A model generated the notes under the pieces. That model was not told where the DNA came from. It searched no databases and worked only from the letters and a program-made list of their open reading frames with translations. From positions 25,212-89,211 of the forward strand of contig JAGAKV010000011.1 in NCBI GenBank assembly GCA_017625505.1: a stretch of DNA of 64,000 bases. Direction: 5' to 3'. Shown here one piece after another: positions 9,318 through 64,000 of the stretch (the stretch's first letter is position 1; every line of letters starts with the position of its first letter). Both the position numbers and the translations under genes were made by a program. Source of the stretch: Clostridia bacterium. GTDB lineage: Bacteria; Bacillota; Clostridia; Christensenellales; UBA1242.

Positions 9318-9380
9318 TAGCGATATTTTAGCATATTTTAAAGAATTTGTAAACTGTATTTGTAAAATAATATATTTATT

Positions 9381-10225: not shown

Positions 10226-10357
10226 TTTGTCTTTTCCTGTCCTTTATATTATATCTTTTCCCCTTTTGCTCAACTTATACTTACAAGCATTTTGCCCCAT
10301 TTTTTAAGATCAAAACCGCAATATAATCAATTATATAAATAAATATTTGAAAAAAGG

Positions 10358-10386
10358 TTGATTGTTGGCACAAAATGTTGTATAAT
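10358..10386 (+). promoter_or_regulatory. Sigma-A-type promoter of the 1104-aa surface protein gene
   Basis: TTGATT (10358-10363), a 17-nt spacer, and TATAAT (10381-10386). The AAAGGTGG RBS and ATG 10410 follow. Confidence 0.6.
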
Positions 10387-10409
10387 GGCTAGGTATTAAA
10401 AGGTGGATT

Positions 10410-13400: not shown

Positions 13401-13724
13401 TCTCAAGCACAAAAGCTTCGCGATCAAGAAGTTGCAAACTTACAGGCTGCAAGAAAAGCTGTAGAAGAAGAAAAAGCAACAACAGAGCAAGAGCACAAAG
13501 AATTTATCCGCGTTCAAAGAGAAAAGGATAAAGGAAAGATTTCTAAAACTGTTGAAAAAGCATTTAAGCAATACACTTCTCGCATTGCAACTCTCAACGA
13601 AAAGATTAAGATTCTTAATGAGAAAATCGATTACGTTATGACAGCTGATCATCTCATTGAAATCGAAAGAAAAATCGTTGCAAATGAAGATGACAAAAAA
13701 TCTAAAAAGAGAAAATCAAAATAG
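10410..13724 (+). CDS. Giant surface protein: signal peptide, repeated beta-sandwich (CBM4_9/galactose-binding-like) modules, C-terminal TM helix and K/E-rich coiled-coil tail
   Basis: Signal peptide ...SAPKTANA. Recurrent module starts are N(P/F/A)SF(V/E/D)....W. The TM helix WGIIASSLITSLAVVIGVIALAF is followed by about 140 aa of charged heptad-like sequence. Confidence 0.75.
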   Translation: MKKTRNFTNKTFLKLAAFLCFPCALFGGAMVSAPKTANAEQTSYSYSEGHREANNVTNPSFVDGARPFASDNALTGWSVIEQTKAKGMIIDVGNKIESDDKEIENTTFSNHKDTYMLETNPETKDKNDTRILMINSKSSSSQRNVETRKGYKSSTLSLKANSYYVFYVSAKTMLNGDSYAQASIYLSGMKDKEGNDLAFEKIESTTWGDYYFFVATGDKDADVNLQLYLGSKDSDSSGVALFDATSVYRYSENEFYDLCYNYGYKGLDEKVALSNGQASFLVNENKTKANIVEETANYNFNFEDETALFNDNWTLLAHPNGTAQIINYADFAATTGLPRIGNDLSYDNNRALVMQTTASDYSSYIGIKSKNITIAPHAAYKVSLKVKIANMESGSFYLKLTEGDYIYSVYSDFVSDEEKDDNYLALSSGKTNGITSNTTDVWTNDYQTIDYYVKGHSLYTSKVNVELWLGDSETSAVGCVVVDDIQVERVADSEIDSADCLTLKSNTEETSFTNASFDTTTNSDDNHKYPLTATGWTNSKESDLKCEAGVVYLDENIYEGAAESVYDLMYDKATYNWAGINPKNANGNAKPSNVYMMFNREDSYQTLKSPSFSLNGQEYYKVSFKYYNQLYKTTTPSSIRVEVVDSTGIILFSQAGISSLDEWAQMDIFFHTATTKAHEISLNIYFGESSSPARGLVYLDNFAWTSATADEFGAAAYKTDMTGFYTKLDTVSSDVATVVESSAYTFSATSHDSNFSSANCGFGGVVRGTDNAYGITNEKDNFLALTSYGASTLSLKSKFTKEFEADTYYKLTFSLATILGKGETTEDHDCSYGVTIKLEGYGEIANLITDGALKDYTIYFKATDSATSPTLEFILNSDCDLTTGSALLTNLLLEKTDGDRYIKAQNIAAYGESVFTSEYEGVEDDFEEPDLEDKEDEPVETENTTNWGIIASSLITSLAVVIGVIALAFRSIKLKKINKVKASAYDKRLNENHELIMSQAQKLRDQEVANLQAARKAVEEEKATTEQEHKEFIRVQREKDKGKISKTVEKAFKQYTSRIATLNEKIKILNEKIDYVMTADHLIEIERKIVANEDDKKSKKRKSK

Positions 13725-13728
13725 AAAA

Positions 13729-13755
13729 ATAAGGGGTGCCTCCCCTTATTTTTAT
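13729..13755 (+). terminator. Rho-independent terminator
   Basis: ATAAGGGG/CCCCTTAT stem with a 5-nt loop, followed by TTTTT. Confidence 0.8.
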
Positions 13756-13779
13756 TTGCTAAGGTTATTGTGTGAGAAC

Positions 13780-13808
13780 AAAAAAAAGACGAGCATTCGT
13801 CTTTTTTT
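13780..13808. terminator. Bidirectional terminator hairpin
   Basis: AGACGA-GCAT-TCGTCT flanked by an A8 run upstream and a T7 run downstream. It sits between convergent genes. Confidence 0.7.
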
Positions 13809-13831
13809 GTTAGTAACAGATAGACAATAAA

Positions 13832-14377
13832 TTAGTCTTCGTCGTCATAATCCTCATCGTCATCATCGTCGAAATCTTCATCTTCAAAGTCGTCAAAATC
13901 ATCTTCGTCGTCATCTTTATCGTCTATATCTTCATCGTCTTCGTCGTCAAAGTCCTCGTCATCGAAGTCTTCATCAAAATCAATGGCGTCATTTTCGTCG
14001 AAATCAAGCCCTGCACCAATGTCATCTTCATCAAGCATGCTTGACTGTGTGATGTCATTCACAGATGTCATTTCTCCCATTTCATCATCCATTGTCATAA
14101 CGTCATCATCATCTTCACGATTCATATAGTCATCCCAGTCAGAAGTGAGTTCGCCGTCTTCATTTCTATGTTCCTTTAGGCAGCTTGTGCACATAATTTC
14201 ATCAGGTTGAATATAGTTTGTTTTGCAGATTGGGCAAAGTTCAAGATCATCAATATCATCTGTGTAATCCTTCTTTGCTTCCATTTCAGCCTTGCATACG
14301 CTGCAATATTTATCCTTTTTTTGAATGTAGTTGAGTTCACATCTTGGACATCTAACATATACAGGTTTTTTGCTCAT
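13832..14377 (-). CDS. Tandem zinc-ribbon protein with an extreme poly-acidic C-terminal tail
   Basis: There are two copies of CP.C..NYIQ(6-7)C..C (CPRCELNYIQ...CSVC and CPICKTNYIQ...CTSC). The following ~90 aa are dominated by D/E with periodic F. Confidence 0.7.
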   Translation of the reverse strand: MSKKPVYVRCPRCELNYIQKKDKYCSVCKAEMEAKKDYTDDIDDLELCPICKTNYIQPDEIMCTSCLKEHRNEDGELTSDWDDYMNREDDDDVMTMDDEMGEMTSVNDITQSSMLDEDDIGAGLDFDENDAIDFDEDFDDEDFDDEDDEDIDDKDDDEDDFDDFEDEDFDDDDDEDYDDED

Positions 14378-14462
14378 TTAATTTCTCCTTATTACCCTTT
14401 GTTTTTCTATTGACATTATACCGATATGAGAGGCAAAAGTCTATCAAAATTGACTATATTTT

Positions 14463-15101
14463 TTATTTTTTTTCTTTTTCTTCAAGCGCGGCTTCCGCCT
14501 GGCTCTTTCTTAAATATAATGGAAGCAGACAAGCGGCACAAATTAGCGGCTGTGAGCGAGATTTTTCGTTGGCAAGAGCCAGAAACTCTTCTGGCGTAGG
14601 TTTGATTTGTATCCCCTCTAAATTCTCTTCCTCTAGCGAAACCTTTTGAAGTTGATTCGTCTCAAGGTCAGCCTTCGTCACCATTTTCTCATCGCCAATT
14701 TGGTTTCCACTGCAGTCAAACTCACATATGAAGTAATATCCACTTAATCCGTTTATTATGCATAGAAAGTTTTCGCTAGGCTTGAAATTTTTAATATAAC
14801 TATATGCCATAAGTGCAAATGTGGTGAGCGGCAATGTGTTTGCTTCATTATTTCCCGCCAGCAGGCCTTTAACAAGCGAAGTTGCAATCCGAAGCCCTGT
14901 AAACGAGCCCGGCCCAACAATCACTGCAAAAGTCTCCTTTTGAAGGTCCACTTTCTCATCAATTTCTTCCAACGCGTCATCAAGAGATGGAAGCAAATTT
15001 TCTGAATGTTTGCAATTTGCATCCAAAGTTCTAAATGCGCGTTTCCCATTGATCTCAACCGCCACCAGTGCCTGCTTATATGCAGATGAAAGTGCTATCA
15101 T
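14463..15101 (-). CDS. tsaB: tRNA t6A37 biosynthesis protein TsaB
   Basis: GPGSFTGLRI motif, 212 aa, and a 4-bp overlap with the upstream tsaE. Confidence 0.85.
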   Translation of the reverse strand: MIALSSAYKQALVAVEINGKRAFRTLDANCKHSENLLPSLDDALEEIDEKVDLQKETFAVIVGPGSFTGLRIATSLVKGLLAGNNEANTLPLTTFALMAYSYIKNFKPSENFLCIINGLSGYYFICEFDCSGNQIGDEKMVTKADLETNQLQKVSLEEENLEGIQIKPTPEEFLALANEKSRSQPLICAACLLPLYLRKSQAEAALEEKEKK

Positions 15102-53083: not shown

Positions 53084-53301
53084 ATTTCCTCCAGCACAAA
53101 CTAGTGCTTTTATTTTTTGTTTTGCATTTTAAAACAAATTAATTAATATTTTTATTGTCGAATAGCATATTTAGTATTTATATATTTAATTTATCATATA
53201 AATTTATTTTTTCCAAACAAATTACAAAATATTTTAAAATAATAAAAATATTACAAAAATAAATATGAATATTTTTTTATATAAAATTTTAGTGGTAATA
53301 A

Positions 53302-54723
53302 TCACAAAGCATTAAATCGATTTTTTCTAATTAGTTTTTCTTTATCCTTTTGAATTTGTGATTTTTCTTGCCTTTTTTGCACCGGCTTATTGATATTCAT
53401 AAGATAATAGCGCATTTCGTCTAAGCAGTGATCATCCTTTTTGATCGGAATATCATCATCTCCCCACCAATATCCCTTTATCTCCGAAATCAAGTTCACG
53501 CAGTTTTTGAATATAAATAAATGAGCTTTTCCTTCGCCATCTTTGAGATAGCTTTTAACCTTGCTTATTCCGCTAAACATATCCTTGTTTACTTTAGGGT
53601 TTACCAAAATGTCGTTATCATAAAAAAGATCAACAACGCTTTTGCTGCTTGCAAGCGTTCGCTGAGTTGCCGCACTATCAATCAGCGCGCATAATTTTCC
53701 ATTTTGATAATGCCACCCCAGTCGTTTTGAAATCTCTTTAATGCGGTTTGCGTGATATGTTACATCCTTCCCCTTGTCAAAGTGCTCGGCTATTACATAC
53801 ACGTTTCCATCAAAATCCTGTGCATACCAGTGTGCAGAAAGAGGGTTGTTGAGGCCGGGGTCAATGGAAATGGTATCATACCACTCTTTTGGCACGTCAA
53901 AAGGCTCAATCACATGCACGCTTTCTTGAAACTCGCTATACACAAGCCCGCCGCACTGCATAAACTTGCCATAGCGCCTACTTTCGAGTTCCTCTTCTGA
54001 CATACTTTTTGTCATAGCCTCAATTTCGTGTTTATCAAGATATGGATTATCTGCCCACTCCATTTCTTCATGCCAGACATTATCATCATTATTTTGATTT
54101 AAATAAATTTCGTTATACACCCATGTCAGTCCTTTTAGCGGGGTCATCGTACCAAACACTTCTCCCTGCCTATCAAGGACTCTCATGCGACATTCTTGGT
54201 AAATATCATATGGCGGTTCTTCATCAAACCAAACAAAGTCAAGTGATGAGCCCTGAAATTTTTCTCTTCCCTGATCACAGCTTTTAAAGCCAATTTTGGA
54301 AAGCGAGCCAAACACATTTTTGACCATAATAAAGTCAATTACGCCCCCTTCTGCGCTATCCGAACGGCCGCTGGACATGACAATATGGTCAATCCAATCC
54401 TTTCTTAAGTAGTGCAAAATTTTGCTTTGCGCGACATCACGCTGCACCTGTTTTGACAGACTTACAACCCATGCCGAAATTGGCTTATTTTTCTTAAAAG
54501 GATGAATTCCTCTTGCAAGCCAAACCGTTTCTACCGCGCCGCACTCGGTCTTACCTGAGCGATTTCCTCCAAATACCCAACGATTCTTCTTGCAGCACTT
54601 ATGAAACTCCATTTGTTTTTTGTGGATAATTTCTCCGCTGTTATAGCGTGACAAATTGTCTTCTCTTTGCCTTTTTTCGATTTCTTGCGTCACAAGCTGC
54701 AACTTATATTTTATCTCTTCCAT
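53302..54723 (-). CDS. Phage terminase large subunit (intact, isolated)
   Basis: Walker A GGNRSGKT, Walker B LDFVWFDE, and nuclease-half motifs IDPG and DDHCLDEMRY. The start is taken at MEEIKY (ATG 54723) after GGAGAG. Confidence 0.85.
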   Translation of the reverse strand: MEEIKYKLQLVTQEIEKRQREDNLSRYNSGEIIHKKQMEFHKCCKKNRWVFGGNRSGKTECGAVETVWLARGIHPFKKNKPISAWVVSLSKQVQRDVAQSKILHYLRKDWIDHIVMSSGRSDSAEGGVIDFIMVKNVFGSLSKIGFKSCDQGREKFQGSSLDFVWFDEEPPYDIYQECRMRVLDRQGEVFGTMTPLKGLTWVYNEIYLNQNNDDNVWHEEMEWADNPYLDKHEIEAMTKSMSEEELESRRYGKFMQCGGLVYSEFQESVHVIEPFDVPKEWYDTISIDPGLNNPLSAHWYAQDFDGNVYVIAEHFDKGKDVTYHANRIKEISKRLGWHYQNGKLCALIDSAATQRTLASSKSVVDLFYDNDILVNPKVNKDMFSGISKVKSYLKDGEGKAHLFIFKNCVNLISEIKGYWWGDDDIPIKKDDHCLDEMRYYLMNINKPVQKRQEKSQIQKDKEKLIRKNRFNAL

Positions 54724-54812
54724 TTCTCTCTCCGCTAAAAAGTTTACATTTGCCCATAATATCGACAAATATTTGTTTTGACCCGTTCCCCCTTTCGATA
54801 TACACTTGACTT

Positions 54813-55586
54813 ATGAAAAAATTAGTAATTTCTCTATCGCTTATTATTTTCTGTCTTGCCATTCTTCCAACCAGTGCACAATACTCTTACGCTGAAAAAA
54901 TCTACTGGGCCAAGGTTGAACAAAATGGCACTTATTTTTATGCTCTTGCTGACGAGACAAGCCAGCTGTTTATTTTGCCTGAATCTTATTTTGTAAAACT
55001 TACCGGCGAAAAGGATAATTTCTTCTCCGCGCAGTATCGAGACATACAGGGATATGTGAAAAAAGATGAAGTGAGCCCAATGGATGGAACGCCGTCAAAT
55101 CCATACTATATTGAATCTTTCAGAGCATTTTTGCCTGCAGGTACGGGGCTTTATGCCATCAGTCAAATGATGGATGAGTATAAAATCATTGACATCCCAT
55201 ACCTATATGAAAATCTGACCTATTACGGCTCGATTGCTGGGCAAACTGCCATCCCAGAAAAAAGTAATATCTGGCATTACTGCAAATATGGTGAGGATTA
55301 TGGCTATGTATATTCCATTTTTTGTGACAAGCTGGAATCCCCACCACTAAACCATGAAAGTTTTTCAAAAATTGACAGCGTTTCATTTGAAGAGCCTCCA
55401 ATAAAAGCACTCTCGCAAACAGCAATGGCTTTTATTATTATCGGCGTTTCTCTTCCATGCCTGATTGTTTTATATCTTCTCATCAGACCTAATATGATGA
55501 AAGTAAGCCTGCCAAAAGAAAAATCCAAATATAAAGCAGCAAAGCGAAGGGATTACTTTGAATTTGACCAATCAGATTTAAATTAA
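54813..55586 (+). CDS. Secreted protein with SH3b-like N-domain and C-terminal TM anchor
   Basis: Signal peptide ...PTSAQYSYA. YWAKV...GYVKKDEV resembles a bacterial SH3. TM helix AFIIIGVSLPCLIVLYLLI near the C-terminus. Confidence 0.5.
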   Translation: MKKLVISLSLIIFCLAILPTSAQYSYAEKIYWAKVEQNGTYFYALADETSQLFILPESYFVKLTGEKDNFFSAQYRDIQGYVKKDEVSPMDGTPSNPYYIESFRAFLPAGTGLYAISQMMDEYKIIDIPYLYENLTYYGSIAGQTAIPEKSNIWHYCKYGEDYGYVYSIFCDKLESPPLNHESFSKIDSVSFEEPPIKALSQTAMAFIIIGVSLPCLIVLYLLIRPNMMKVSLPKEKSKYKAAKRRDYFEFDQSDLN

Positions 55587-56080
55587 ATGGCAATTTGCTC
55601 CTCCGCCATTTCTTGCTCTTTATAGCTTTGGTAAATCTCCATAATCCACTTCTCTCCCGCCAAATACCTTTGAAGCTTTTTCTCGTCATATCCAAATTTA
55701 CTCATAAAGCCACAAAATTTTTCTTCCGCAGCAAGAAGATGTCTAAAATAAGTGCGTATGTTTAAATTATGTCGCTCGGCTATTGCTTGAGATGAATCTC
55801 CGTCCATATATTTCTCGATTAAAATTTGAGCAGAATGTCTATCGCACTCAAGGAGCGCCTTGTCGGCAAGCACCCTAACATTAATCAGTCTCTTTTTCCT
55901 CTCGGTCAGCTCCAATATGCGATCAGCAACTGCCATTACAGAATTTTGCGACTGATTTTGCCCAACAAAATAAAATGAATTGAAGGCGTTTTGTTTGACA
56001 AGTTTGTCAATGGCCTCGCTTACCCTATCTAAAAATTTATATACCGATAAAATTGTTTTTCCCCATGTATTATTCTTCAT
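55583..56080 (-). CDS. ArpU-/sigma-70-region-4-like phage-type transcriptional regulator
   Basis: 165 aa. The C-terminal HTH ...DSSQAIAERHNLNIRTYFRHLLAAEEKF resembles sigma r4 and ArpU late regulators. It has its own promoter and RBS. Confidence 0.5.
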   Translation of the reverse strand: MKNNTWGKTILSVYKFLDRVSEAIDKLVKQNAFNSFYFVGQNQSQNSVMAVADRILELTERKKRLINVRVLADKALLECDRHSAQILIEKYMDGDSSQAIAERHNLNIRTYFRHLLAAEEKFCGFMSKFGYDEKKLQRYLAGEKWIMEIYQSYKEQEMAEEQIAI

Positions 56081-56111: not shown

Positions 56112-56141
56112 ATTATAAGTAGTGAAAATTGAAAAAGTCAA
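56112..56141 (-). promoter_or_regulatory. Promoter of the ArpU-like gene
   Basis: On the minus strand: TTGACT (56141-56136), an 18-nt spacer, and TATAAT (56117-56112). GGAG lies upstream of ATG 56080. Confidence 0.6.
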
Positions 56142-56168
56142 CGTTCACTGACATAGTATTACATATTT

Positions 56169-56186
56169 TTGTAAAATATTTTACAA
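56169..56186. promoter_or_regulatory. Perfect 18-bp palindrome TTGTAAAATATTTTACAA (operator candidate), copy 1
   Basis: It lies within the 24-bp string ATATTTTTGTAAAATATTTTACAA, which recurs identically at 58232-58255. It is 27 nt upstream of the -35 box. Confidence 0.7.
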
Positions 56187-56196
56187 AAATGAGTGT

Positions 56197-56236
56197 TTTT
56201 TTCGAATTTTGTCAAATTTTGTCAATTTTTGTCGAA
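56197..56236 (+). repeat. Four phased 10-bp direct repeats (TTTTTTCGAA TTTTGTCAAA TTTTGTCAAT TTTTGTCGAA)
   Basis: The repeats have an exact 10-bp period. The last unit contains TGTCGAA, the canonical Spo0A-box heptamer, and the two before it are one-mismatch variants. Confidence 0.75.
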
Positions 56237-56294
56237 ACGACTACACTTTTACGTATGGAGATTTAAGATTATTTAAACTTTTTTTTAAAATCTG

Positions 56295-56323
56295 TTGCAC
56301 TCTAAGAAGTTTTGTGCTAAGAT
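56295..56323 (+). promoter_or_regulatory. Possible tRNA-Leu promoter
   Basis: TTGCAC (56295-300), a 17-nt spacer ending in TGC, and TAAGAT (56318-23). Confidence 0.4.
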
Positions 56324-56381
56324 TGTATTGTTGCTTAGGCTTCTGCCTGGCATAAAACTTACAATTAAACAAATTTATTAT

Positions 56382-56467
56382 GCTGGTGTGGCGGAATGGC
56401 AGACGCGACGGACTCAAAATCCGTTGGTGGCAACATCATGTGGGTTCGACTCCCACCACCAGCACCA
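56382..56467 (+). tRNA. tRNA-Leu (anticodon CAA), type II with long variable arm, CCA encoded
   Basis: Acceptor stem GCTGGTG/CACCAGC, anticodon stem ACGGA/TCCGT with loop CTCAAAA, T-arm GTGGG-TTCGACT-CCCAC, and a 3' ACCA. Confidence 0.9.
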
Positions 56468-56489
56468 ACAGGTTTTACCTGTTTTTTTT
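56468..56489 (+). terminator. Rho-independent terminator after tRNA-Leu
   Basis: ACAGGT-TTT-ACCTGT followed by a T8 run. Confidence 0.8.
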
Positions 56490-56492
56490 ATT

Positions 56493-56571
56493 TGGTGGGA
56501 GTCGAACGTGTTCGATCGGGTTCCCTGAAAATTGTAAAATTTTTAGGGTAAGGCTTCCACCACCAGCACCA
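56493..56571 (+). repeat. Inverted (56493-56507) and direct (56555-56571) copies of the tRNA-Leu 3' end enclosing two hairpins
   Basis: 56493-56507 is the exact reverse complement of tRNA bases 56444-56458. 56555-56571 matches tRNA bases 56451-56467 at 16 of 17 positions. Confidence 0.85.
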
Positions 56572-56593
56572 GTAACCTAATGTTGCACGACTA

Positions 56594-56625
56594 AATACTG
56601 AATGAAATTGGTTCAGTATTTTTTA
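56594..56625 (+). terminator. Terminator-like hairpin
   Basis: AATACTGAA/TTCAGTATT 9-bp stem with a 9-nt loop, followed by a T-run (TTTTTTATTT). Confidence 0.55.
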
Positions 56626-56867
56626 TTTGCGAAGGCACCTCCAACCACGTCGCTTCTCGAAGATATGGTTAGCGAACGTGTTTAAATCCACCCGCAAGAG
56701 TCCATGTGCGTATGAAAAGCGTGACGTCGCACCAATGCAATAACGGTTACGCCGCTTTACACCGCGCCACATTGAATTGAAGCCCACTCCGTCACTCAAC
56801 TCATTAAAAAAGCGCCCCAAAACTAGCATAAAATTGCTAGAATTGGAACGCTGCTGGTTCGCTTAAT

Positions 56868-57056
56868 CTAATCATTAAATTCCATAAGTATAAAAACTTC
56901 GTTTTTACATTTTACACATTTCATATCATGAATAAAATGTTTTTTCCCTCGCACTGAGGGCTTTTTTATTAATATTCTACATGTGCCACTATCAGACGAT
57001 GTATTGCACTCGCCAAGACATCTTCCACAGTGAGGACAATATAGCTTGATATTCAA
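56868..57056 (-). CDS. Small CxxC...CxxC zinc-ribbon protein co-transcribed with lexA
   Basis: 62 aa with CPHC near the N-terminus and CVKC near the C-terminus. It starts 11 nt after the lexA stop. It faintly resembles Mu Com-type zinc fingers. Confidence 0.5.
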   Translation of the reverse strand: MNIKLYCPHCGRCLGECNTSSDSGTCRILIKKPSVRGKKHFIHDMKCVKCKNEVFILMEFND

Positions 57057-57067
57057 TTTTTGCCTCC

Positions 57068-57664
57068 TTAAAATTTATGGATACAATGCTCGACCACGCC
57101 AAGAATGCTTACGTGCCGCGTAATAATGTCTCCATAATTTTTGTTTTCAGGGTGTAACACTACATGATCTGACCGCTTGTAAAAAGTCTTAACGGTTGCG
57201 CTGTCATCAAGTAAGGCGACTACTATCTGACCATTTTGCGCATAGTTGGTTTTGCGGACAACAAGCAAGTCTCCACTTTGAATCCCCACTTCCATCATAC
57301 TATCACCTTCAGCGTGAAGCAGGAATATCTCGCCGCGACCAAATATATCGCTTGGCAGTGCATACACTCCTTCAATGTTTTCTTGAGCCAGTATAGGTTG
57401 ACCGCATGTGACCACACCAACCACAGGGGCAATTGTGACTGATGAGGCATCAAAAGTTGGAAAACAGAATATCTTTCCACTCTTGCTTTTTTGCACTTCT
57501 CCCCGCTCTGCAAGAATATCTATATATCTGCTTACGACAGAGAGGCTTGAAAGCTGAAACTGTTTGGCTATATTACGATAAGAGGGGCTTTGCCCATTCT
57601 TAATCTGATAAGTTTTAATATAGTCCAAAATTTCAGCCAGCAATTTTTCATTTACAACCTTCAT
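57068..57664 (-). CDS. lexA: LexA-family repressor (winged HTH + S24 peptidase)
   Basis: The start is taken at MKVVNEKLL (ATG 57664) after GAGGT. HTH SYRNIAKQFQLSSLSVVSRYI, catalytic Ser in GDSM and Lys in VKTF. Confidence 0.85.
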   Translation of the reverse strand: MKVVNEKLLAEILDYIKTYQIKNGQSPSYRNIAKQFQLSSLSVVSRYIDILAERGEVQKSKSGKIFCFPTFDASSVTIAPVVGVVTCGQPILAQENIEGVYALPSDIFGRGEIFLLHAEGDSMMEVGIQSGDLLVVRKTNYAQNGQIVVALLDDSATVKTFYKRSDHVVLHPENKNYGDIITRHVSILGVVEHCIHKF

Positions 57665-57682
57665 ACCTACCTCGTTTTTAAA

Positions 57683-57697
57683 AGAACATCGCGTTCT
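57683..57697. promoter_or_regulatory. LexA-box-like inverted repeat AGAAC-N5-GTTCT
   Basis: AGAACATCGCGTTCT lies between the predicted lexA -10 box (57709-57714) and the RBS. The spacer is 5 nt rather than the 4 nt of the canonical Firmicute box. Confidence 0.45.
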
Positions 57698-57708
57698 TTT
57701 ATGGAAGT

Positions 57709-57737
57709 ATAATAACACACTCTTTTTTAAATTGCAA
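57709..57737 (-). promoter_or_regulatory. lexA promoter
   Basis: On the minus strand: TTGCAA (57737-57732), a 17-nt spacer, and TATTAT (57714-57709). Confidence 0.5.
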
Positions 57738-57757
57738 GCGTTTGTGTCAATTTTTTC

Positions 57758-57789
57758 AAAAAAAAAATGCCATCTTTTTTCAGACGGCA
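57758..57789 (-). terminator. Rho-independent terminator after the Spo0A_C gene
   Basis: On the minus strand: TGCCGTCT-GAAAAA-AGATGGCA (8 bp including one G-U), followed by a T10 run. Confidence 0.7.
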
Positions 57790-58172
57790 CATTTTTTGCT
57801 TTTTTGTAAAATCTTATTGCTTTCCATAAATGCTTTTTCCGCAAGCAGACAAAGCATTTCACGTGGAGATGGTTTACAAATAGAAAAACGGATATGCATT
57901 CCTCTTTCAAAATCGGCAATTCCATTTCGCTTATAACTCACTTCAATTGCATGACGCATGGCACGATCAACAATGTCAAGCTTTACCCCATTATCCGATG
58001 CGATCTCTTGATATAACCCAACCCCAACTTTAAACTTCTTATCATTGTCATTTATAATCTTTTTTGCCCCCTCCTTAAAGAAAGTATACCCTTTCAAATT
58101 GGGTGATATCTTCAGCATAATCAAAAACAGCGACAACTTTTCTTCTATAAGAAGAGCAAAACATTCTTGCAT
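57780..58172 (-). CDS. Stand-alone Spo0A C-terminal (DNA-binding) domain protein, no receiver domain
   Basis: The start is taken at MQECF (ATG 58172) after GGAGG. ISPNLKGYTFFKEG, VDRAMRHAIEVSY.RNG and KPSPREMLCLLAEK align with the Spo0A effector motifs IKGYLYLREA, VERAIRHAIEVAWSRG and KPTNSEFIAMVADK. Confidence 0.8.
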   Translation of the reverse strand: MQECFALLIEEKLSLFLIMLKISPNLKGYTFFKEGAKKIINDNDKKFKVGVGLYQEIASDNGVKLDIVDRAMRHAIEVSYKRNGIADFERGMHIRFSICKPSPREMLCLLAEKAFMESNKILQKSKKCAV

Positions 58173-58193
58173 AATTCCTCCGTAGCATAAAGG

Positions 58194-58221
58194 ATTATAC
58201 TGATGTGGACGCAAAAGTCAA
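58194..58221 (-). promoter_or_regulatory. Promoter of the Spo0A_C gene
   Basis: On the minus strand: TTGACT (58221-58216), a 16-nt spacer, and TATAAT (58199-58194). Confidence 0.6.
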
Positions 58222-58237
58222 TACTTTTTAAATATTT

Positions 58238-58255
58238 TTGTAAAATATTTTACAA
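58238..58255. promoter_or_regulatory. Perfect 18-bp palindrome TTGTAAAATATTTTACAA, copy 2
   Basis: Identical to 56169-56186, including 6 upstream bases. It lies 16 nt upstream of the -35 box of the Spo0A_C gene. Confidence 0.7.
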
Positions 58256-58282
58256 TTTTGCTTTATACATTGCTTTAACACA

Positions 58283-58308
58283 AAAAAAGTTGTGTCTTTA
58301 CGACACAA
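58283..58308 (-). terminator. Rho-independent terminator after the BspA-like gene
   Basis: On the minus strand: TTGTGTC-GTAAA-GACACAA followed by a T7 run. Confidence 0.75.
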
Positions 58309-58332
58309 CATGCATATTAATCTTTACTAAAT

Positions 58333-60180
58333 CTACGCTTTAAGCGTCAAATAGCCATACTTGCCAGTAGTTTCATCCAGTCCAGCGTAAGCATATGTTT
58401 TGTCGATCACCTTGCCGTTTGCTTCCCAGTTTGGAAGGGATGAGCAACTTAAAAACATATCTGTACTGCCAGAAACTTGATGCGTAAAGCCAGAAATAGA
58501 ACAGTTTGCTGAGGCCGCCAATGCGCTTGTTGTCCACTTGCTTCCAATATATATGTTTTCAAGAGCGCTGCACCCAGCAAAAATATGATGCATGTCTTGA
58601 ACTTTTGATGTGTCAAACGTTGACAAATCTAAAGTTGTAAGATTTGCATTGTTTTTAAATAAATGTTCCATAGACACAACATTAGCCGTTCCAAATCCAT
58701 TTAAATTAAGTGACGTTAAAGAGGACATTCCAGACAGCATATCTGTCATGTTTATGACTTGTTCATTGCTAAAACTCGAAAGGTCAAGAGATGTCAACGT
58801 TCGACAGTTGCGAAACATATACGTCATGGTGGTTGCACTTTTCGTGTTAAACGATGAAACGTCTAGACTTTCAAGGACAGTACATGCTTGAAACATCCAA
58901 TCAAACCGAGTCACCTTTGATGTATCAAAGCCATTCAGCCCCACAATGTTCTTAATTTTGAAGCACCCTGAAAACATTGCATCCATTTGCGTTACATTAG
59001 AGGTATTAAATGATGTAAGATCAAGCGACAACAGTGAGGAACAACTTGCAAACATCGATGTCATCACTTTGACATTTTGCGTATTAAAACTAGACACGTC
59101 AACCTCAGTTAAACTAGAACAATTTGAGAACATGCTAAGCATATTGGTCACTTTTGACGTGTTAAAATTTGATAAATCAAGAGAAGTTAGGCTTTTGCAG
59201 CCGTAAAACATATTTGACATATCCTTCACACTTGAAGTATCCCAACCCGTCATATCTATTTCTGTCAAATATGAGACCAAACCACTCTCTGATGCAAACA
59301 TGTTTGACATCTGTGTAACATTTGAAACATCAAAATGAGATAAATCAAGTTTGCTTAACTTTGTAGAATGAAACATCGCATGCATCGATGTGCATTTTGA
59401 TGTATTAAAATTTGAAATATCCAGCTGCTGAAGACTCATACAATATTGAAACATACCGGATATCGCTGTTAAATTGGGTGTAAACCATTTAGACAGATCG
59501 AGCGCAGTAAGGCTTCGACAATAATAGAACATATAGGAAAAACTTGTTGCATTTTCTGTATTAAGTTTTTCTAGTCCATCAATATTCGTAAGTACTTTAC
59601 AATTGTAAAACATCCCATAAAAATTAGTCACAACAGATGTATCAATGTTGTTGAATGCAATTTTTGTTAGCACGGATGACTTGACACCTGCCTCATTTAT
59701 TGAATAAACGTAATCCGCTCTGAAAAAATCTTTACAATCGGCTGGCATGGTGATTGTCTCATTTGAAAGGACAAGCATTGCGCCGATGTGCGATGATGTC
59801 TCGCGATTATAATAGGTGTAATAGTGGGCAAAGATGCTTTCGTCTTGTGCTTGACTTACGTCAATTGTAGAAAGCACGTCTGTGCTTACGAGGCTACCCC
59901 CACCCCGCGAAAACGCGTAGGTGGCGCGGTCAGCGTCGGTATAACTGTCAAAATAAATTTCAGTTATGACAGGGTTGCCGATTGACGAAGCCTCTTCGTT
60001 AAACTCTAAATATGCATTTTGAAAGTTTGTTTTGCCAATCATTGGATTTTTGGTGTAATAATAAATATTTGTATAAGTTTCGATTTGAGGCATTGAAACA
60101 GCAAAAACACCCATCGACATCGCGATGCAGACGAGAAATGAGTATAACACTACATAAATTGTTGTTTTTACCTTTTTCAT
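58333..60180 (-). CDS. BspA-family leucine-rich-repeat surface protein (DUF285-type ~25-aa repeats)
   Basis: More than 10 consecutive repeats of the type LDLS.FNTS.VT.M..MF..C.SL, with an N-terminal signal/anchor helix. Confidence 0.85.
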   Translation of the reverse strand: MKKVKTTIYVVLYSFLVCIAMSMGVFAVSMPQIETYTNIYYYTKNPMIGKTNFQNAYLEFNEEASSIGNPVITEIYFDSYTDADRATYAFSRGGGSLVSTDVLSTIDVSQAQDESIFAHYYTYYNRETSSHIGAMLVLSNETITMPADCKDFFRADYVYSINEAGVKSSVLTKIAFNNIDTSVVTNFYGMFYNCKVLTNIDGLEKLNTENATSFSYMFYYCRSLTALDLSKWFTPNLTAISGMFQYCMSLQQLDISNFNTSKCTSMHAMFHSTKLSKLDLSHFDVSNVTQMSNMFASESGLVSYLTEIDMTGWDTSSVKDMSNMFYGCKSLTSLDLSNFNTSKVTNMLSMFSNCSSLTEVDVSSFNTQNVKVMTSMFASCSSLLSLDLTSFNTSNVTQMDAMFSGCFKIKNIVGLNGFDTSKVTRFDWMFQACTVLESLDVSSFNTKSATTMTYMFRNCRTLTSLDLSSFSNEQVINMTDMLSGMSSLTSLNLNGFGTANVVSMEHLFKNNANLTTLDLSTFDTSKVQDMHHIFAGCSALENIYIGSKWTTSALAASANCSISGFTHQVSGSTDMFLSCSSLPNWEANGKVIDKTYAYAGLDETTGKYGYLTLKA

Positions 60181-60187
60181 TACAATT

Positions 60188-60216
60188 ATTATACACTATT
60201 TTATTCAAAAAGTAAA
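60188..60216 (-). promoter_or_regulatory. Promoter of the BspA-like gene (predicts a leaderless mRNA)
   Basis: On the minus strand: TTTACT (60216-60211), a 17-nt spacer, and TATAAT (60193-60188). ATG 60180 follows 7 nt later with no Shine-Dalgarno. Confidence 0.45.
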
Positions 60217-60287
60217 TAAATTTTAAATGATTTTGCAAATTTTCACCATGTTGTTTTAATGCGAAAAAAAAACGTTTGTCAGAAGTT

Positions 60288-60316
60288 TTGTAAAAGGAAA
60301 GGCTGACCATTTTACA
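60288..60316. promoter_or_regulatory. Split version of the palindrome: TTGTAAAA-N13-ATTTTACA
   Basis: The half-sites at 60288-60295 and 60309-60316 equal the two arms of the 18-bp palindrome. They end 9 nt upstream of the -35 box of the 60373 gene. Confidence 0.5.
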
Positions 60317-60325
60317 TATTATCTC

Positions 60326-60372: not shown

Positions 60373-61074
60373 ATGGACGAAAATTTACCATCTTCTCAAT
60401 CTTCTGGCAAAAACCTGCATAAGAGAAAACAATCAAAAGCGTATGAAATTTTAGAAACAGTTGGCGCTGACGCTCACTCTATTGTGAGCATGATTTTAAA
60501 AAGCCACCAACACAATAAAGATGACCTTAATGCTTTAGCGCGCTGTTTGACTTCTTTTCTCAACAAAAAAGACGTCACCAAAATAGACTTTAATAAACTT
60601 TCAACAGCAAAACAAGCCTCAGGGCAATATAATGTTTTGTTGTCTAGCGAAGAAGCAGAAAAACACTTTGTAGACGCTGTTGAGTATGCCGCTGCCGACG
60701 CCAACCTTGCAACCGACGTTGTAAAAGAGCTTGTTGGAATTATCATAAGCAACAAACTTAGCCAAACTCAAATATTTAAAGACTACCTTTTAAAAAGCGG
60801 CGTGACAGGATATTGTTATACCAAAAGCGATATGTTTAAAGAGGAAATAATCAAACTTGATGATGCCTTTATCGCGTTAGAAAAGCAGACGCAGCCAAGC
60901 TTTAACCGCAGCGAATTTATCTCTCGTGCATACCCTTTTGCATTCTATTCAGCATATCAATCAATCAAAACAGACGATACGTCAATCATCTATTCATTCG
61001 CACTTGCATCAATCATGGAAATGAACATGCGACAAGGCTTGCTTGATGAAGAACACGCCGAAGAAAACGAATAA
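60373..61074 (+). CDS. Hypothetical cytoplasmic protein
   Basis: 233-aa ORF with a strong promoter and RBS. I recognised no domain. Confidence 0.55.
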   Translation: MDENLPSSQSSGKNLHKRKQSKAYEILETVGADAHSIVSMILKSHQHNKDDLNALARCLTSFLNKKDVTKIDFNKLSTAKQASGQYNVLLSSEEAEKHFVDAVEYAAADANLATDVVKELVGIIISNKLSQTQIFKDYLLKSGVTGYCYTKSDMFKEEIIKLDDAFIALEKQTQPSFNRSEFISRAYPFAFYSAYQSIKTDDTSIIYSFALASIMEMNMRQGLLDEEHAEENE

Positions 61075-61239: not shown

Positions 61240-61315
61240 GGACTGCTAGCTCAGTCGGTAGAGCATCTGACTCTTAATCAGGGGGTCCGGAGTTCGAGCC
61301 TCCGGCAGTCCACCA
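61240..61315 (+). tRNA. tRNA-Lys (anticodon CTT), CCA encoded
   Basis: Acceptor stem GGACTGC/GCAGTCC, D-arm AGCTCAGTCGGTAGAGC, anticodon loop CTCTTAA, and T-arm CCGGAGTTCGAGCCTCCGG. Confidence 0.92.
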
Positions 61316-61389
61316 AAACACATACCATAAGAACTTTAAACACATTATATGTTTTTAAATCAAATTCAGTTGGTATAATCATAAAAAAA

Positions 61390-61413
61390 GACTAGTTGCA
61401 ACTAGCCTTTTTT
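61390..61413 (+). terminator. Rho-independent terminator after tRNA-Lys
   Basis: 14-bp palindrome CTAGTTGCAACTAG followed by CC and a T6 run. Confidence 0.75.
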
Positions 61414-61672
61414 ATTGTTATAAATATAAAATGCTTAATCAAATTCAATAAACAAAGATATATCAACACTTTTTCACATTATTTTAAACCCTTTGCCTAG
61501 AATTATATTTTTAAAAAACAATCAAAATGAAACAATTATATTTATAACATTTTATAGATTACCACCCCCTTTTAACCATTAGAAAAAACAGATTGCCACA
61601 TTTTTTTGCGATGTCGCAATTTTTTTAGTAAAAAGCATTGACTTTTTCTTACACATCATTTATAATATAACT

Positions 61673-61766
61673 ACACAAAGCAAATGTTTTTTAACATTCT
61701 GTCGGCTTCGTTCCGACCTTTGCAAGGTGTAGGTGAAGTAAGATTTTATCTTACTTCTTTTTTTTT
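61673..61766 (+). ncRNA. Candidate small RNA (~95 nt) with its own consensus promoter and strong terminator
   Basis: TTGACT (61638-43), a 17-nt spacer, and TATAAT (61661-66). Internal hairpins are AATGTT/AACATT and GTCGG-CTTCGTT-CCGAC. The terminator is GAAGTAAGAT/ATCTTACTTC plus a T9 run (61735-61766). There is no RBS before the only ATG. Confidence 0.5.
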
Positions 61767-61976
61767 ATGTTGTAAATACTTTTCATATTCAACTAAAACA
61801 CAAACATTATTCACATCATATCTATTTTTAAAAACCCATAAAAAGAACTCTTTTAAAACAACCATTTTTTCTTTTGCTTGCATTATCTTATTTGTCTGTT
61901 TCATAGAGTCTTTTAAATAAGCTTTTTCATTATTATAAAGTATTGTTTCATCATTTATAATGCGTTTTTCTTTCAA
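61746..61976 (-). CDS. Small hypothetical protein (TTG start)
   Basis: 76 codons with AAGGAAGG 8 nt upstream of TTG 61976. Its 3' end overlaps the sRNA-candidate terminator. Confidence 0.4.
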   Translation of the reverse strand: MKEKRIINDETILYNNEKAYLKDSMKQTNKIMQAKEKMVVLKEFFLWVFKNRYDVNNVCVLVEYEKYLQHKKKEVR

Positions 61977-62005
61977 TGCTTTTCCTTCCTTTTTTCAAAT
62001 ATTTT

Positions 62006-62217
62006 CGGTTAAGTGTTACTATTGTCGAGTAGAGTAACACTTAACGGCAAGGCTTGGCTAAAGCCAAAGCCTATGCCGATATGAAAGCATTATTGTATAT
62101 CTGTTTGTAAAATGTTTGCTAACGCAAAAATTTTCTTACGAAAATTCAAGCATTTGACAAGCAGATATACAGTAATGCAAAGAGCAGTCAAGAAAACAAA
62201 ATGAAATATTTTGTTTT
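62006..62217. other. Array of four long stem-loops (structured RNA or DNA element)
   Basis: The helices are 62008-20/62033-45, 62046-58/62063-77, 62087-114/62151-178 (capped by two mini-hairpins) and 62193-202/62208-217. There is no ORF. Confidence 0.7.
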
Positions 62218-62431
62218 ACAAAACAATTTTTAAGAATTCACCTATATCAAAGTTTATATCTATAAGACCTTTATTTATAAATATGACTTTTATATTTTCT
62301 AAATCTTCGATAGTAAAATCAATTTTCTTGGCGAATTTATTTTGTAAAGTGCTGAAAGGCATACCAAGTTGAATAGCTAAATTTTTAATACTTATATTAT
62401 TATTTTTCATAAGCAATCTTAAATAAAACAT
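62216..62431 (-). CDS. Small HTH protein
   Basis: NISIKNLAIQLGMPFSTLQNKF is an HTH pattern. AGGTGG lies 5 nt upstream of ATG 62431. ATG 62410 is an alternative start. Confidence 0.5.
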   Translation of the reverse strand: MFYLRLLMKNNNISIKNLAIQLGMPFSTLQNKFAKKIDFTIEDLENIKVIFINKGLIDINFDIGEFLKIVL

Positions 62432-62440
62432 AAACACCAC

Positions 62441-63310
62441 CTATTCACAAATCAATTCTTGTAAAGTATAATTTTTAAAAAACTTATCTCTTAAAGCTTG
62501 TATCTGATATAAAAAAAGTTTACTTTGAGCTATAGTTTTATGGTAAACATACTTTTCTAACTCATCTTTAGTAATATTTAAACAGTTTGCATAATCTTCA
62601 ATATTACCATTTTCACGCATCAGTTGATAAATTTTAAAATCTTGAAAATTATATAATGTCTTTCCTTGCTTTTTAGCTTTTTCTCTTTCAAGCCATAATC
62701 GATGACAATTACTTGTTTCGAATTCATCACCATTATAATAAACATTTTTATAGAAAAAACCATTACAATTAAGCAAATCAAGAAAGTCAGCTCTAAACCC
62801 ACGAACCAATAAAACAAAGTCCTTTCTTGCTATCTTATGTATATTACAAATATCTTTAACCTTTTGTTTTTTAAAAAAATAACACATTAAAATTTTTTTA
62901 TTATCAAAATCATAGTTATTTATTAGTTCATTAAAAGACTTTAAAACAAGACTCTCGCATAAGATGTCAAAGTTATTACTTTTATCTTCTAAAACATCAT
63001 ATAAAAACAATTCTCTATCACCATTTTTAGAAATAGAAGTATCAAATGACATCAACAAATCATTTTGTTTAATTTTGTATAAACATTGCATAATTTTATT
63101 ATCTGCAATCTTTGAAAGCTCTAAAAATAAGTTATCTTTTGTTATATGGTTATTTTGTTTTATGTATTCTAACAAATCAATATAAACATCAAAGAGTATA
63201 TCATTTTTATAATCATCGAATTTATCCCCATAAAACCTTTTAATCTTTTGATTATATGAATTATTAAGGACTTTAAATTCAATACCATCTAAACCTTTAA
63301 AAACATTCAT
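62441..63310 (-). CDS. Hypothetical protein with sigma-factor-like / multi-HTH features
   Basis: 289 aa, very AT-rich codons. ...KKQKVKDICNIHKIARKDFVLLVRGFR... and ...DYANCLNITKDELEKYV... look like HTH segments. The family is uncertain. Confidence 0.5.
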   Translation of the reverse strand: MNVFKGLDGIEFKVLNNSYNQKIKRFYGDKFDDYKNDILFDVYIDLLEYIKQNNHITKDNLFLELSKIADNKIMQCLYKIKQNDLLMSFDTSISKNGDRELFLYDVLEDKSNNFDILCESLVLKSFNELINNYDFDNKKILMCYFFKKQKVKDICNIHKIARKDFVLLVRGFRADFLDLLNCNGFFYKNVYYNGDEFETSNCHRLWLEREKAKKQGKTLYNFQDFKIYQLMRENGNIEDYANCLNITKDELEKYVYHKTIAQSKLFLYQIQALRDKFFKNYTLQELICE

Positions 63311-63312
63311 AG

Positions 63313-63495
63313 TTACCCCTTATTATTTGTTTGATAAATTAACGCGCGAACTTCAGCCAAAAGCGAAACACTAGCTACATACACCCTTACAGGATAACCT
63401 AGTTTTTCAAGTGAACTAGCAAAAGTAAGCGCTTTTTCTTTGTCATCAAATTTTTTAACTTTACCATAATGTTTTACTTCATACAATGTTTTCAT
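63313..63495 (-). CDS. Small hypothetical protein
   Basis: 60-aa ORF. Its ATG overlaps the stop of an upstream 48-codon ORF (ATGA). It ends 2 nt before the next gene. Confidence 0.45.
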   Translation of the reverse strand: MKTLYEVKHYGKVKKFDDKEKALTFASSLEKLGYPVRVYVASVSLLAEVRALIYQTNNKG

Positions 63496-63638
63496 TTTAT
63501 TTTCTCCTTTCTATCTAAAACACAAGATTTAATATATTGATAAACTTTTTTATTAAATAAATCATAATCCAAAGGAGAAGCACGAGAAGTTGCAAACTCT
63601 TTATTGTCTTTTCTTGAAAATACATAACCAATAACCAT
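63492..63638 (-). CDS. Possible 48-aa ORF (below the ORF-track cut-off)
   Basis: My manual translation gives MVIGYVFSRKDNKEFATSRASPLDYDLFNKKVYQYIKSCVLDRKEKIK. Its stop overlaps the next ATG. The RBS is weak (GTGGGG). Confidence 0.25.
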   Translation of the reverse strand: MVIGYVFSRKDNKEFATSRASPLDYDLFNKKVYQYIKSCVLDRKEKIK

Positions 63639-63676
63639 ATAAACCCCACTTATATTTACGCACAATAATTATTCGT

Positions 63677-63719
63677 ATTGCAAATATTTATGTATAGTTT
63701 AATAAAGATTGCAAATATT
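63677..63719. promoter_or_regulatory. Two copies of ATTGCAAATATT in the divergent switch region (operator candidates)
   Basis: Exact 12-mers at 63677-63688 and 63708-63719, 31 bp apart, between the leftward operon and the XRE gene. Confidence 0.5.
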
Positions 63720-63795
63720 GTCAACTAATTTTAAACAAATACTTGATATTTTTCTAAAAATTTTATAAGATATACAAATAAAAGGAGCAAACTTT

Positions 63796-64000
63796 ATGAA
63801 ATTAAAAGAAATTAGAACAAAATGTTTAATGACTCAACAAGAAGTAGCACAAAAATTAAATATAACACAATCAACATACAGTGGCTATGAGTCCGGCAAA
63901 TACCAACCAAGTATTGACATTTTAATTGCCATAAGCAAATTATTTAAGGTGTCTATAGATTATTTACTAGGCAATGAAAACGAGTTTACAATCGATATGT
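63796..64000 (+). CDS. XRE-family (cI/Cro-like) HTH regulator, 3'-truncated by the window edge
   Basis: AAAGGAG RBS upstream. MKLKEIRTKCLMTQQEVAQKLNITQSTYSGYESGKYQPSIDILIAISKLFKVSIDYLLG is a canonical HTH_3 pattern. Confidence 0.85.
   Translation, partial: MKLKEIRTKCLMTQQEVAQKLNITQSTYSGYESGKYQPSIDILIAISKLFKVSIDYLLGNENEFTIDM

Follow-up and report, generated by a model that had tools for sequence, protein, structure and literature searches.

The window analysed here comprises 64,000 nucleotides of chromosomal DNA from the metagenome-assembled genome (MAG) of an uncultured member of the Clostridia (GenBank assembly GCA_017625505.1, contig JAGAKV010000011.1). Two of its genes, one for an ArpU-like regulator and one for a protein consisting of a Spo0A C-terminal domain (Spo0A_C) only, have the same 18-bp palindrome upstream of their promoters. 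Judged by its conservation, the palindrome is a genuine regulatory DNA site, shared by many uncultured gut Clostridia, and is most likely part of a small regulatory circuit that has not been described before. The reading to which we give somewhat better than even chances is that receiver-less Spo0A-domain proteins bind the boxes that make up the palindrome, autoregulate, and co-regulate the ArpU-like activator, whose gene is positioned beside a conserved lone terminase gene.

The original prediction held that an identical 24-mer containing an 18-bp palindrome occurs twice in the window, each time with a minus-strand TTGACT/TATAAT promoter downstream. Both statements are borne out, and the coordinates agree (Table 1). 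The 24-mer, ATATTTTTGTAAAATATTTTACAA, is found at 56163-56186 and 58232-58255, and no match to it was obtained in 100 dinucleotide-preserving shuffles. The palindromic 18-mer, TTGTAAAATATTTTACAA, is present in two exact copies in the 64 kb, all other matches having at least three mismatches. Sequence identity between the two copies ends abruptly at 24 bp, and at site 1 the palindrome itself extends to 26 bp. The core of site 1 (56169-56186) consists of two 8-bp boxes, TTGTAAAA, in inverted orientation with TA between them. Site 2 lies immediately downstream of the terminator of a gene for a DUF285/BspA-like surface protein. A three-mismatch version of the palindrome at 53222 was rejected as a site: it has no box pair and belongs to another conserved element, located in the gap between the terminase gene and a surface-protein gene.

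All promoters and transcription starts described here are predictions from the sequence. The gap between the palindrome and the -35 box is 27 nt at the ArpU-like promoter and 16 nt at the Spo0A_C promoter, the latter being followed by a GGAGG ribosome-binding site and an ATG at 58172. Class I-type upstream activator sites are centred near -61.5, -71.5 and so forth, on one helical face; relative to the predicted starts, the centres of sites 1 and 2 are placed at about -72.5 and -59.5, respectively, and the sites of another subfamily of Spo0A_C genes, group B below, overlap the -35 box.

Table 1. Coordinates of the features discussed in the text (window numbering, unless a related locus is named)
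Feature	Position	Strand	Remarks
Site 1	56165..56190		perfect 26-bp palindrome, halves ATTTTTGTAAAAT and ATTTTACAAAAAT
Site 2	58238..58255		same 18-mer palindrome; 16 nt upstream of the -35 box of the Spo0A_C gene
Predicted sigma-A promoter, ArpU-like gene	56112..56141	-	TTGACT (56141-56136), 18-nt spacer, TATAAT (56117-56112)
Predicted sigma-A promoter, Spo0A_C gene	58194..58221	-	TTGACT (58221-58216), 16-nt spacer, TATAAT (58199-58194)
Semi-conserved TG(T/G)CA element	56147..56154	-	ATGTCAGT in the window; between site 1 and -35
Three tandem 0A-type boxes	56208..56236	+	TTTGTCAAA, TTTGTCAAT, TTTGTCGAA; 10-bp period
Candidate third site	60288..60317	+	TTGTAAAA at 60288-60295, 14 nt, TTTTACAt
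Gene for 130-aa stand-alone Spo0A C-terminal domain protein	57780..58172	-	Pfam Spo0A_C, 50.3 bits (cut-off 25)
Gene for 165-aa ArpU-like regulator	55583..56080	-	phrog_248 (4.7e-6), phrog_36 (phage late-activator families)
Module beside the ArpU-like gene	53302..55586		membrane protein 54813-55586 (+); TerL 54768/54723-53302 (-)
Ribbon-helix-helix gene in related loci	L215 5604-5795; L218 5565-5753; L222 5563-5775; L128 and L130 ~2036-2222		

An exact scan for the 18-mer in one genome per species returned at least 119 loci (loci are given L numbers), mostly from unrelated phyla. Among the matches listed, nine loci from uncultured Clostridia carry the motif 20-260 nt upstream of a stand-alone Spo0A_C gene (L012, L063, L094, L107 and L112) or of an ArpU-like gene beside the gene for the terminase large subunit, TerL (L028, L087, L104 and L108). 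The ArpU-like proteins of these listed loci are 26-52% identical to that of the window. Both kinds of site can occur on separate contigs of one genome (L063 and L108; CAKNRR). A phage origin of the motif was considered and rejected: the 39 exact matches in IMG/VR have unrelated flanks and no related genes nearby. Near those motif copies that have no downstream gene, a search for known RNA families found tRNAs alone. A search with defence-system models gave no meaningful match.

To avoid the bias of a motif search, loci were instead fetched by protein homology. This set contains 48 metagenome loci found via TerL and the contigs encoding Spo0A_C homologues, comprising 758,830 bases, to which the window was added. 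It holds 31 pairs of TTGTAAAA/TTTTACAA boxes, 19 of them inverted with two nucleotides in between (N2), 10 split and inverted (N3-30) and 2 direct. For each of the 31, the gene downstream is a Spo0A_C or ArpU-like homologue at a distance of no more than about 115 nt, and the set contains no pair elsewhere. Random scatter through AT-rich DNA, one outcome that the original prediction had set against itself, is not seen in these loci; a chance or scattered AT-rich repeat is ruled out by the shuffles and by this promoter association.

When the regions upstream of the ArpU-like gene from eight species are aligned, TTGTAAAA, TTTTACAAAA, TTGACT and TTATAAT are invariant, the central dinucleotide is TA, AT or TT, and columns are on average 68% identical. 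Centre and flanks vary, but the G and C of TGT/ACA never do. In nine ArpU-like promoters (the eight aligned species and L130) the 27-nt gap to the -35 box has a fixed length and a diverged sequence, except for TG(G/T)CA; columns T108, G109, C111 and A112 of this element are invariant in the eight-species alignment (A1). The ArpU-like orthologues that have boxes upstream are 26-76% identical. Higher-GC relatives, with 24-27% identity in the ArpU-like protein and 57-62% in TerL, lack the dyad and have TTCGACA/TGTCGAA repeats and/or canonical SOS boxes instead. It is near certain that the site is conserved and functional. A shared cis-regulatory site upstream of -35 at the ArpU-like and Spo0A_C promoters had been proposed from the window, and the same pairing recurs in other species. 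The proposal that accessory genes are the targets had to be abandoned: both verified target genes are syntenic across species and are not strain-specific.

The repeating unit of the sites is the 8-bp box TTGTAAAA with A/T flanks (ATTTT...AAAAT), the promoter-proximal copy being mostly TTTTACAAAAATA. Inverted boxes in the N2 arrangement are found in the window, L215, L222 and group B, those in the N11-12 arrangement in L128/L130, L218-221 and L231, and those in the N21-22 arrangement in L234-236 and, at the ArpU-like gene, in L133. L232/L233, and also L077, contain a direct repeat, TTGTAAAAttTTGTAAAA, whose period is 10 bp. Orthologous sites of a single subfamily, group A, range from N2 pairs with TG (L215) or TT (L222) in the centre to pairs split by N12/N11 (L128/L130) or N12 (L218-221). 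The distal box of the N11-12 sites is at an unchanged distance to -35, and the proximal box is one helical turn nearer. Measured between centres, inverted boxes are 9, 18-19 or 28-29 bp apart and direct ones 10 bp, so that all boxes lie roughly on one face of the helix. The one-turn offset between the two copies, noted earlier from the gaps of 27 and 16 nt, is repeated in the relatives, where the gap to -35 falls into two classes of 27-28 and 15-18 nt. In group B promoters the proximal TTTACA doubles as the -35 box and is followed, after 17 nt, by TGtTATATT.

L077 (6380-6800; MAG UMGS2054) contains a 420-nt non-coding stretch between convergent genes, whose nine TTGTAAAA/TTTTACAA boxes stand in tandem, inverted or everted to one another and which also has one TGTCGAA. 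This stretch may be a hub for binding, or else a small gene or RNA that has escaped annotation.

A third, split version of the motif had been proposed upstream of a gene for a 233-aa protein. Both half-sites are present as placed, with ATTTTACA at 60309-60316, but as an 8-mer the second box is imperfect, and the spacing falls outside the conserved classes, the box centres being 21 bp apart compared to the 9, 18-19 and 28-29 bp of conserved sites. The element ends 8 nt upstream of TTGACA(60326)-16-TATACT(60353), the promoter of the 233-aa gene (60373-61074), and is also within the divergent promoter region of the DUF285 gene. Its layout (distal box, N14, proximal box, 8 nt, -35) is akin to that of L218, L128 and L231 (N11-12, then 6-7 nt), with the spacing about 2 nt off. 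The 233-aa protein is an orphan, as the homology search found no homologue besides the protein itself. Loose TGTAAA...TTTACA pairs of this kind are about as frequent as expected by chance in the window and its relatives. The third element is given slightly less than an even chance of being functional.

The best candidate for the protein that binds the boxes is encoded next to site 2. The 130-aa product of the Spo0A_C gene aligns across the entire Spo0A DNA-binding domain of PDB 1LQ1 and 1FC3, and scores 39.4 bits against TIGR02875, the Spo0A equivalog model with a cut-off of 200. It is a DNA-binding domain only: the DNA upstream holds a terminator and a promoter, and no region coding for a receiver domain. 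Its recognition helix reads LDIVDRAMRHAIEV, compared to ASRVERAIRHAIEV in Spo0A. An exhaustive search for Spo0A_C homologues (E <= 1e-3) yielded 487 cluster representatives, in which stand-alone proteins of 110-160 aa are mixed with full-length Spo0A. No description of the stand-alone proteins or of the present motif was found in the literature searched.

The stand-alone proteins form at least four subfamilies with 20-40% mutual identity, which occur in unrelated neighborhoods and all have boxes upstream. Group A genes adjoin lexA, whereas group B genes adjoin rpoC, or are near uvrBA and the gene for a coupling protein of a type IV secretion system. The P0033-type order is NUDIX, Spo0A_C, LexA, and the P0054-type gene adjoins a radical-SAM gene. 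Every stand-alone Spo0A_C gene with a readable upstream intergenic region has boxes in it; L237 (P0075, an R-type stand-alone homologue) is inside an operon, has no promoter region, and is outside that count. The sole feature common to the box-bearing promoters outside the ArpU-like genes is a downstream gene for a receiver-less Spo0A C-terminal domain. A site that is conserved in front of a regulator gene across a large divergence is a classical signature of autoregulation.

Two side observations concern these proteins. Six metagenome proteins of 350-450 aa (P0039, P0048, P0057, P0077, P0081 and P0087) contain three tandem Spo0A_C-like stretches. In L224-L227 (~9300-15100) the group B gene is part of a conserved block, which encodes a 203-aa membrane protein, Spo0A_C, a 131-aa protein, a 110-aa protein, a TraG/VirD4-type coupling protein and RadC; the block is downstream of uvrB and uvrA and hints at a link with DNA transfer.

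The half-site is a close relative of the 0A box, TGTCGAA, to which Spo0A binds in Bacillus and Clostridium. T1, G2, T3, A6, A7 and the A/T flanks are retained in TGTAAAA, and C4 and G5 alone are changed. Both are A at every conserved site, so the canonical 0A-box core is absent and the box is a variant. The palindrome also has no GAAC or GTTC arm of the LexA/SOS box (CGAAC-N4-GTTCG). The earlier statement that the motif matches neither box is literally correct, but it passed over the fact that the half-site differs from the 0A box at C4 and G5 only. Spo0A makes base-specific contacts with G2, C4 and G5, and for the C. difficile Spo0A DNA-binding domain a single C4A or G5A change makes binding about 10-fold weaker (PMC3485338). 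Canonical Spo0A is therefore expected to bind TGTAAAA poorly, and a paralogue with altered specificity would be needed.

The residue at the position of Arg211, which is essential to the function of Spo0A (PMC13577027), is a candidate determinant of such specificity. Full-length Spo0A proteins have R or K at this position (S-R/K-V-E-R), as do the stand-alone P0047, P0071 and P0075. I, L, V or M is found there in group A, group B, the P0054 type and most other sampled stand-alone proteins, and C, A, G, S or F in a few. Arg214, Arg217 and the RHAIEV helix are retained in groups A and B and in most of the other stand-alone proteins. The residue-to-base contacts of Spo0A are taken second-hand from PMC3485338 and PMC13577027. 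The isolated DNA-binding domain of Spo0A binds its targets unphosphorylated (PMC3485338), and a receiver-less protein would for this reason be constitutively binding-competent. Its activity would then be set by its own level, which would make autoregulation a sensible design.

The three tandem 0A-type boxes of the window share the register of the distal box of site 1, the TGT being at 56170, 56210, 56220 and 56230. Within about 150 nt of the palindromes, mostly at ArpU-like promoters, TGTCGA boxes are 6.6 times as dense as in the rest of the related loci. A bona fide spo0A gene, encoding a receiver and a DNA-binding domain, has tandem TGTCGAAataTGTCGA upstream in L238, with the 10-bp register that the direct repeat of TTGTAAAA also shows.

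Overall, the arrangement resembles that of Spo0A and its box in several respects. A protein with the complete DNA-binding domain is encoded nearby, the boxes are arranged singly, in tandem every 10 bp or as inverted copies, their distance to the promoter varies and some of them overlap -35, and the promoter of the regulator itself bears boxes, as does that of spo0A in C. difficile (PMC3485338) and in L238. The differences are the lack of a receiver and phosphorelay input, the A at positions 4 and 5, Ile or Leu in place of Arg211, the preference for a tight inverted pair that forms the 18-bp palindrome, and the targets, which are a phage-type activator and a terminase module and not sporulation genes. 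The system works like Spo0A and the 0A box but departs from them in the receiver domain and in C4/G5, and is classified as a variant and not as Spo0A.

The proposed circuit can be outlined as follows. The palindrome would be a transcription-factor site composed of two inverted 8-bp variants of the 0A box. The 130-aa protein or its kin, having no receiver domain, would bind these boxes without phosphorylation, with one subunit per box and all subunits on one face of the helix, and would autoregulate at its own promoter. The boxes at a fixed distance of 27 nt upstream of -35 would place the ArpU-like sigma-r4 activator under the same control in this lineage and, via this activator, would probably govern the adjoining lone terminase and surface-protein genes. 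As to the sign of regulation, which we infer, the layouts suggest activation where the -35 box is weak and the site is upstream, and autorepression, or a Spo0A-style contact with sigma, where the box itself forms the -35.

Several points weigh against this circuit. The Spo0A-domain proteins are proposed as binders on the strength of association. An ArpU-like promoter that is close to consensus as it stands is hard to reconcile with simple activation, and two subfamilies that are just 20-28% identical would need to recognize one and the same box. Arg211 touches the DNA backbone and not the bases (PMC13577027), and its covariation with the type of box relies on one full-length spo0A locus in the present material and on published knowledge, which amounts to few independent contrasts. 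The box-pair counts cover the fetched loci and the window. Finally, the CASLXJ and CARNVA genomes (L016/L081, L100/L102 and L036/L093) contain exact palindromes without an adjoining Spo0A_C gene, one of which is upstream of dnaX, so that the regulon may be wider or the factor may be encoded at another place.

Such a factor could be another trans-acting regulator of both genes, either CcpA acting through the cre_var operator (TGTAAA-Yx-TTTACA; Yang et al. 2017, PMC5263246) or a protein of the GntR, AbrB or other helix-turn-helix (HTH) type. The inverted 6-bp core is the same, the published definition allows spacers of 0-40 nt, split forms with variable spacers do occur here, and the palindromes away from Spo0A_C genes in some related MAGs, such as that upstream of dnaX, would be accounted for. 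The distribution of the sites makes this explanation unlikely, though it retains an appreciable share of the probability. The 403 kb from low-GC relatives contain 45 cre_var-like pairs, about 7 being expected; the promoter sites of Spo0A_C and ArpU-like genes make up 29 of these, and the other 16 (about 9 once redundant loci are collapsed) are no more than chance would give. None of the pairs is at a carbohydrate-metabolism gene in the loci examined, the sites being confined to two regulator gene families instead of being spread over catabolic genes. The conserved unit, at least 8 bp of TTGTAAAA with its A/T flanks, exceeds the cre_var core, the spacers fall into helical-repeat classes (N2, N11-12 and N21-22), and the direct repeat (L232) is outside the cre_var definition. 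Furthermore, the site follows the Spo0A_C genes through four unrelated genomic contexts.

Two other locally encoded proteins were considered as binders, the ArpU-like protein and a ribbon-helix-helix (RHH) protein of the Arc/TraY type. Boxes are upstream of the ArpU-like gene in 13 or more loci, which would fit autoregulation by its product. However, ArpU-like genes are absent from 20-kb group B loci, those of the higher-GC relatives have no boxes, and sigma-r4-type activators are not known as binders of such dyads. The RHH protein (62-70 aa, 64-79% identity) is encoded divergently upstream of the group A Spo0A_C gene in five loci (Table 1), beside tandem GCGTCAAAAT repeats. These repeats in the neighboring intergenic regions are better candidates for an RHH operator, and the gene is absent from the window, where the DUF285 gene occupies that side, and from group B, P0033-type and P0054-type loci, in all of which the boxes are still present. 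Binding by either protein is thus improbable. In one relative (L222 and L223, 2121-5069), the RHH and Spo0A_C genes are immediately preceded by an inserted Hachiman-like pair (HamA and a helicase). LexA was rejected as the binder, since it probably has a conserved operator of its own and is absent from group B and P0054-type loci.

The palindrome might also be a variant of the Rex operator, tying the genes to the NADH/NAD+ ratio. The resemblance is considerable: the Rex consensus, TTGTGAANNNNTTCACAA (TTGTGAA-N4-TTCACAA; PMC5355995), and its clostridial form, TTGTTAANNNNTTAACAA (TTGTTAA-N4-TTAACAA; PMC5367854), are 18-bp dyads with the same TTGT...ACAA ends, AA/TT at positions 6-7 and an A/T-rich 4-nt centre. 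In its N2 form the present motif, TTGTAAANNNNTTTACAA, fits the dyad TTGT[G/T]AA-N4-TT[C/A]ACAA at 16 of 18 positions and differs solely at arm position 5, which is A, a position where the two Rex forms also differ from each other. Nevertheless, Rex is a very improbable binder. Orthologous promoters have N11-12, N21-22 or direct boxes that a dimer of fixed geometry could not accommodate. No site is beside a fermentation or redox gene in the 0.76 Mb, and the position at about -72 of the ArpU-like promoters is unusual for a repressor. That the palindrome has no specific protein partner, being an AT-rich bent-DNA or UP-like element, a duplication relic or a chance repeat, is barely credible: the A and T tracts are phased and exact 18-mers occur sporadically in unrelated phyla and viruses, but the G and C of TGT/ACA are invariant while centre and flanks vary, the -35 distances are fixed, all 31 pairs are at two gene families, the identity in the window ends sharply at 24 bp, and the viral matches have no related genes nearby.

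The genes around the two sites give some indication of what such a circuit might control. The order on the minus strand of the window is DUF285/BspA-like surface protein, Spo0A_C, LexA, a small zinc-ribbon open reading frame, a divergent tRNA-Leu and the ArpU-like gene, past which are a 257-aa membrane protein on the opposite strand, the lone TerL and an 810-aa surface protein. The gene labels given earlier stand, with reservations: the Spo0A_C (50 bits) and LexA domains are confirmed, the 198-aa LexA protein having Peptidase_S24 and LexA_DNA_bind, whereas the ArpU-like label is owed to phrog_248 and phrog_36, and the protein has no Pfam or NCBIfam match. Sigma70_r4_2 matches seven of eight ArpU-like orthologues (best E 1e-5), among them the window protein, weakly (E 0.1).

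TerL has the domains Terminase_6N/6C and matches phrog_2 at 3e-29. The order ArpU-like protein, membrane protein, TerL is kept in most loci with an upstream flank (L128-L171, L215 and L222 among relatives), and close relatives share the chromosomal synteny Spo0A_C, LexA, tRNA-Leu, ArpU-like protein, membrane protein, TerL, surface protein. The lone TerL has 57-83% amino-acid identity across genomes of 27-54% GC, and no other phage structural genes were found in the 13-kb TerL loci. It looks like a domesticated terminase, and the membrane protein and TerL genes are probable downstream targets of the ArpU-like activator.

In phage late-gene modules an activator of the ArpU/RinA/Xpf type is encoded upstream of the terminase genes, often under LexA/SOS control, PBSX being an example. 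The present module is similar in having a gene for a sigma-r4-like activator directly upstream of TerL, an adjoining lexA and, in several relatives, SOS boxes. It differs in the lack of other phage structural genes, in its conserved chromosomal synteny in genomes of 27-54% GC, and in that the low-GC clade uses the TTGTAAAA dyad and not an SOS box. Canonical CGAAC-N4-GTTCG boxes are found at the ArpU-like promoters of the distant relatives L087, L134, L149 and L150. Upstream of lexA in the window there is an AGAAC-N5-GTTCT element (57683-57697), with a 5-nt instead of the canonical 4-nt spacer, which is kept in L128 and L130 and is probably the operator of lexA itself. Another element of about 52 nt, AAAATATTTTGTAATTTgTTTGGAAAAAAtAAATTTATATGATAAATTAAAT (53184-53235, minus strand), is located between TerL and the 810-aa gene and is kept in L108, L128, L215 and L222; it is a candidate for a non-sigma-A, perhaps ArpU-dependent, promoter.

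A broader proposal is tentative, and we rate it as doubtful. The receiver-less Spo0A-domain proteins might constitute an unrecognized family of factors with a re-tuned box (TGTCGAA to TGTAAAA, with loss of Arg211), which would control, together with LexA, a vertically inherited, domesticated phage late-activator/terminase module in uncultured gut Clostridia. Such a Spo0A-derived switch would serve DNA packaging or transfer and not sporulation.

Spo0A is among the best-studied bacterial master regulators. Its stand-alone C-terminal relatives now gain a testable DNA motif with a grammar, a candidate specificity residue and first target genes, in gut Clostridia that are known from metagenomes alone. 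The conserved chromosomal terminase module appears to be under layered control, by SOS boxes in some lineages and TTGTAAAA boxes in others, and may be a domesticated phage function. Should the binder be another factor, these organisms would still have a well-defined conserved operator and mini-regulon.

Two further observations concern tRNA genes of the window. Behind the tRNA-Leu(CAA) gene (region 56382-56571) come an inverted repeat of its T-arm (56493-56507, 15/15 nt) and a direct repeat of its 3' end with 85% identity (56546-56571), and these partial copies look like integration or excision scars. In the region from 61240 to 64000 and beyond the window (L001, L228), the tRNA-Lys(CTT) gene is followed by an island of 25% GC with small phage-like genes. 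The island ends, past the window, with a gene for an HTH_3 repressor-like protein and one for a 552-aa serine recombinase, and is an element integrated at the tRNA.

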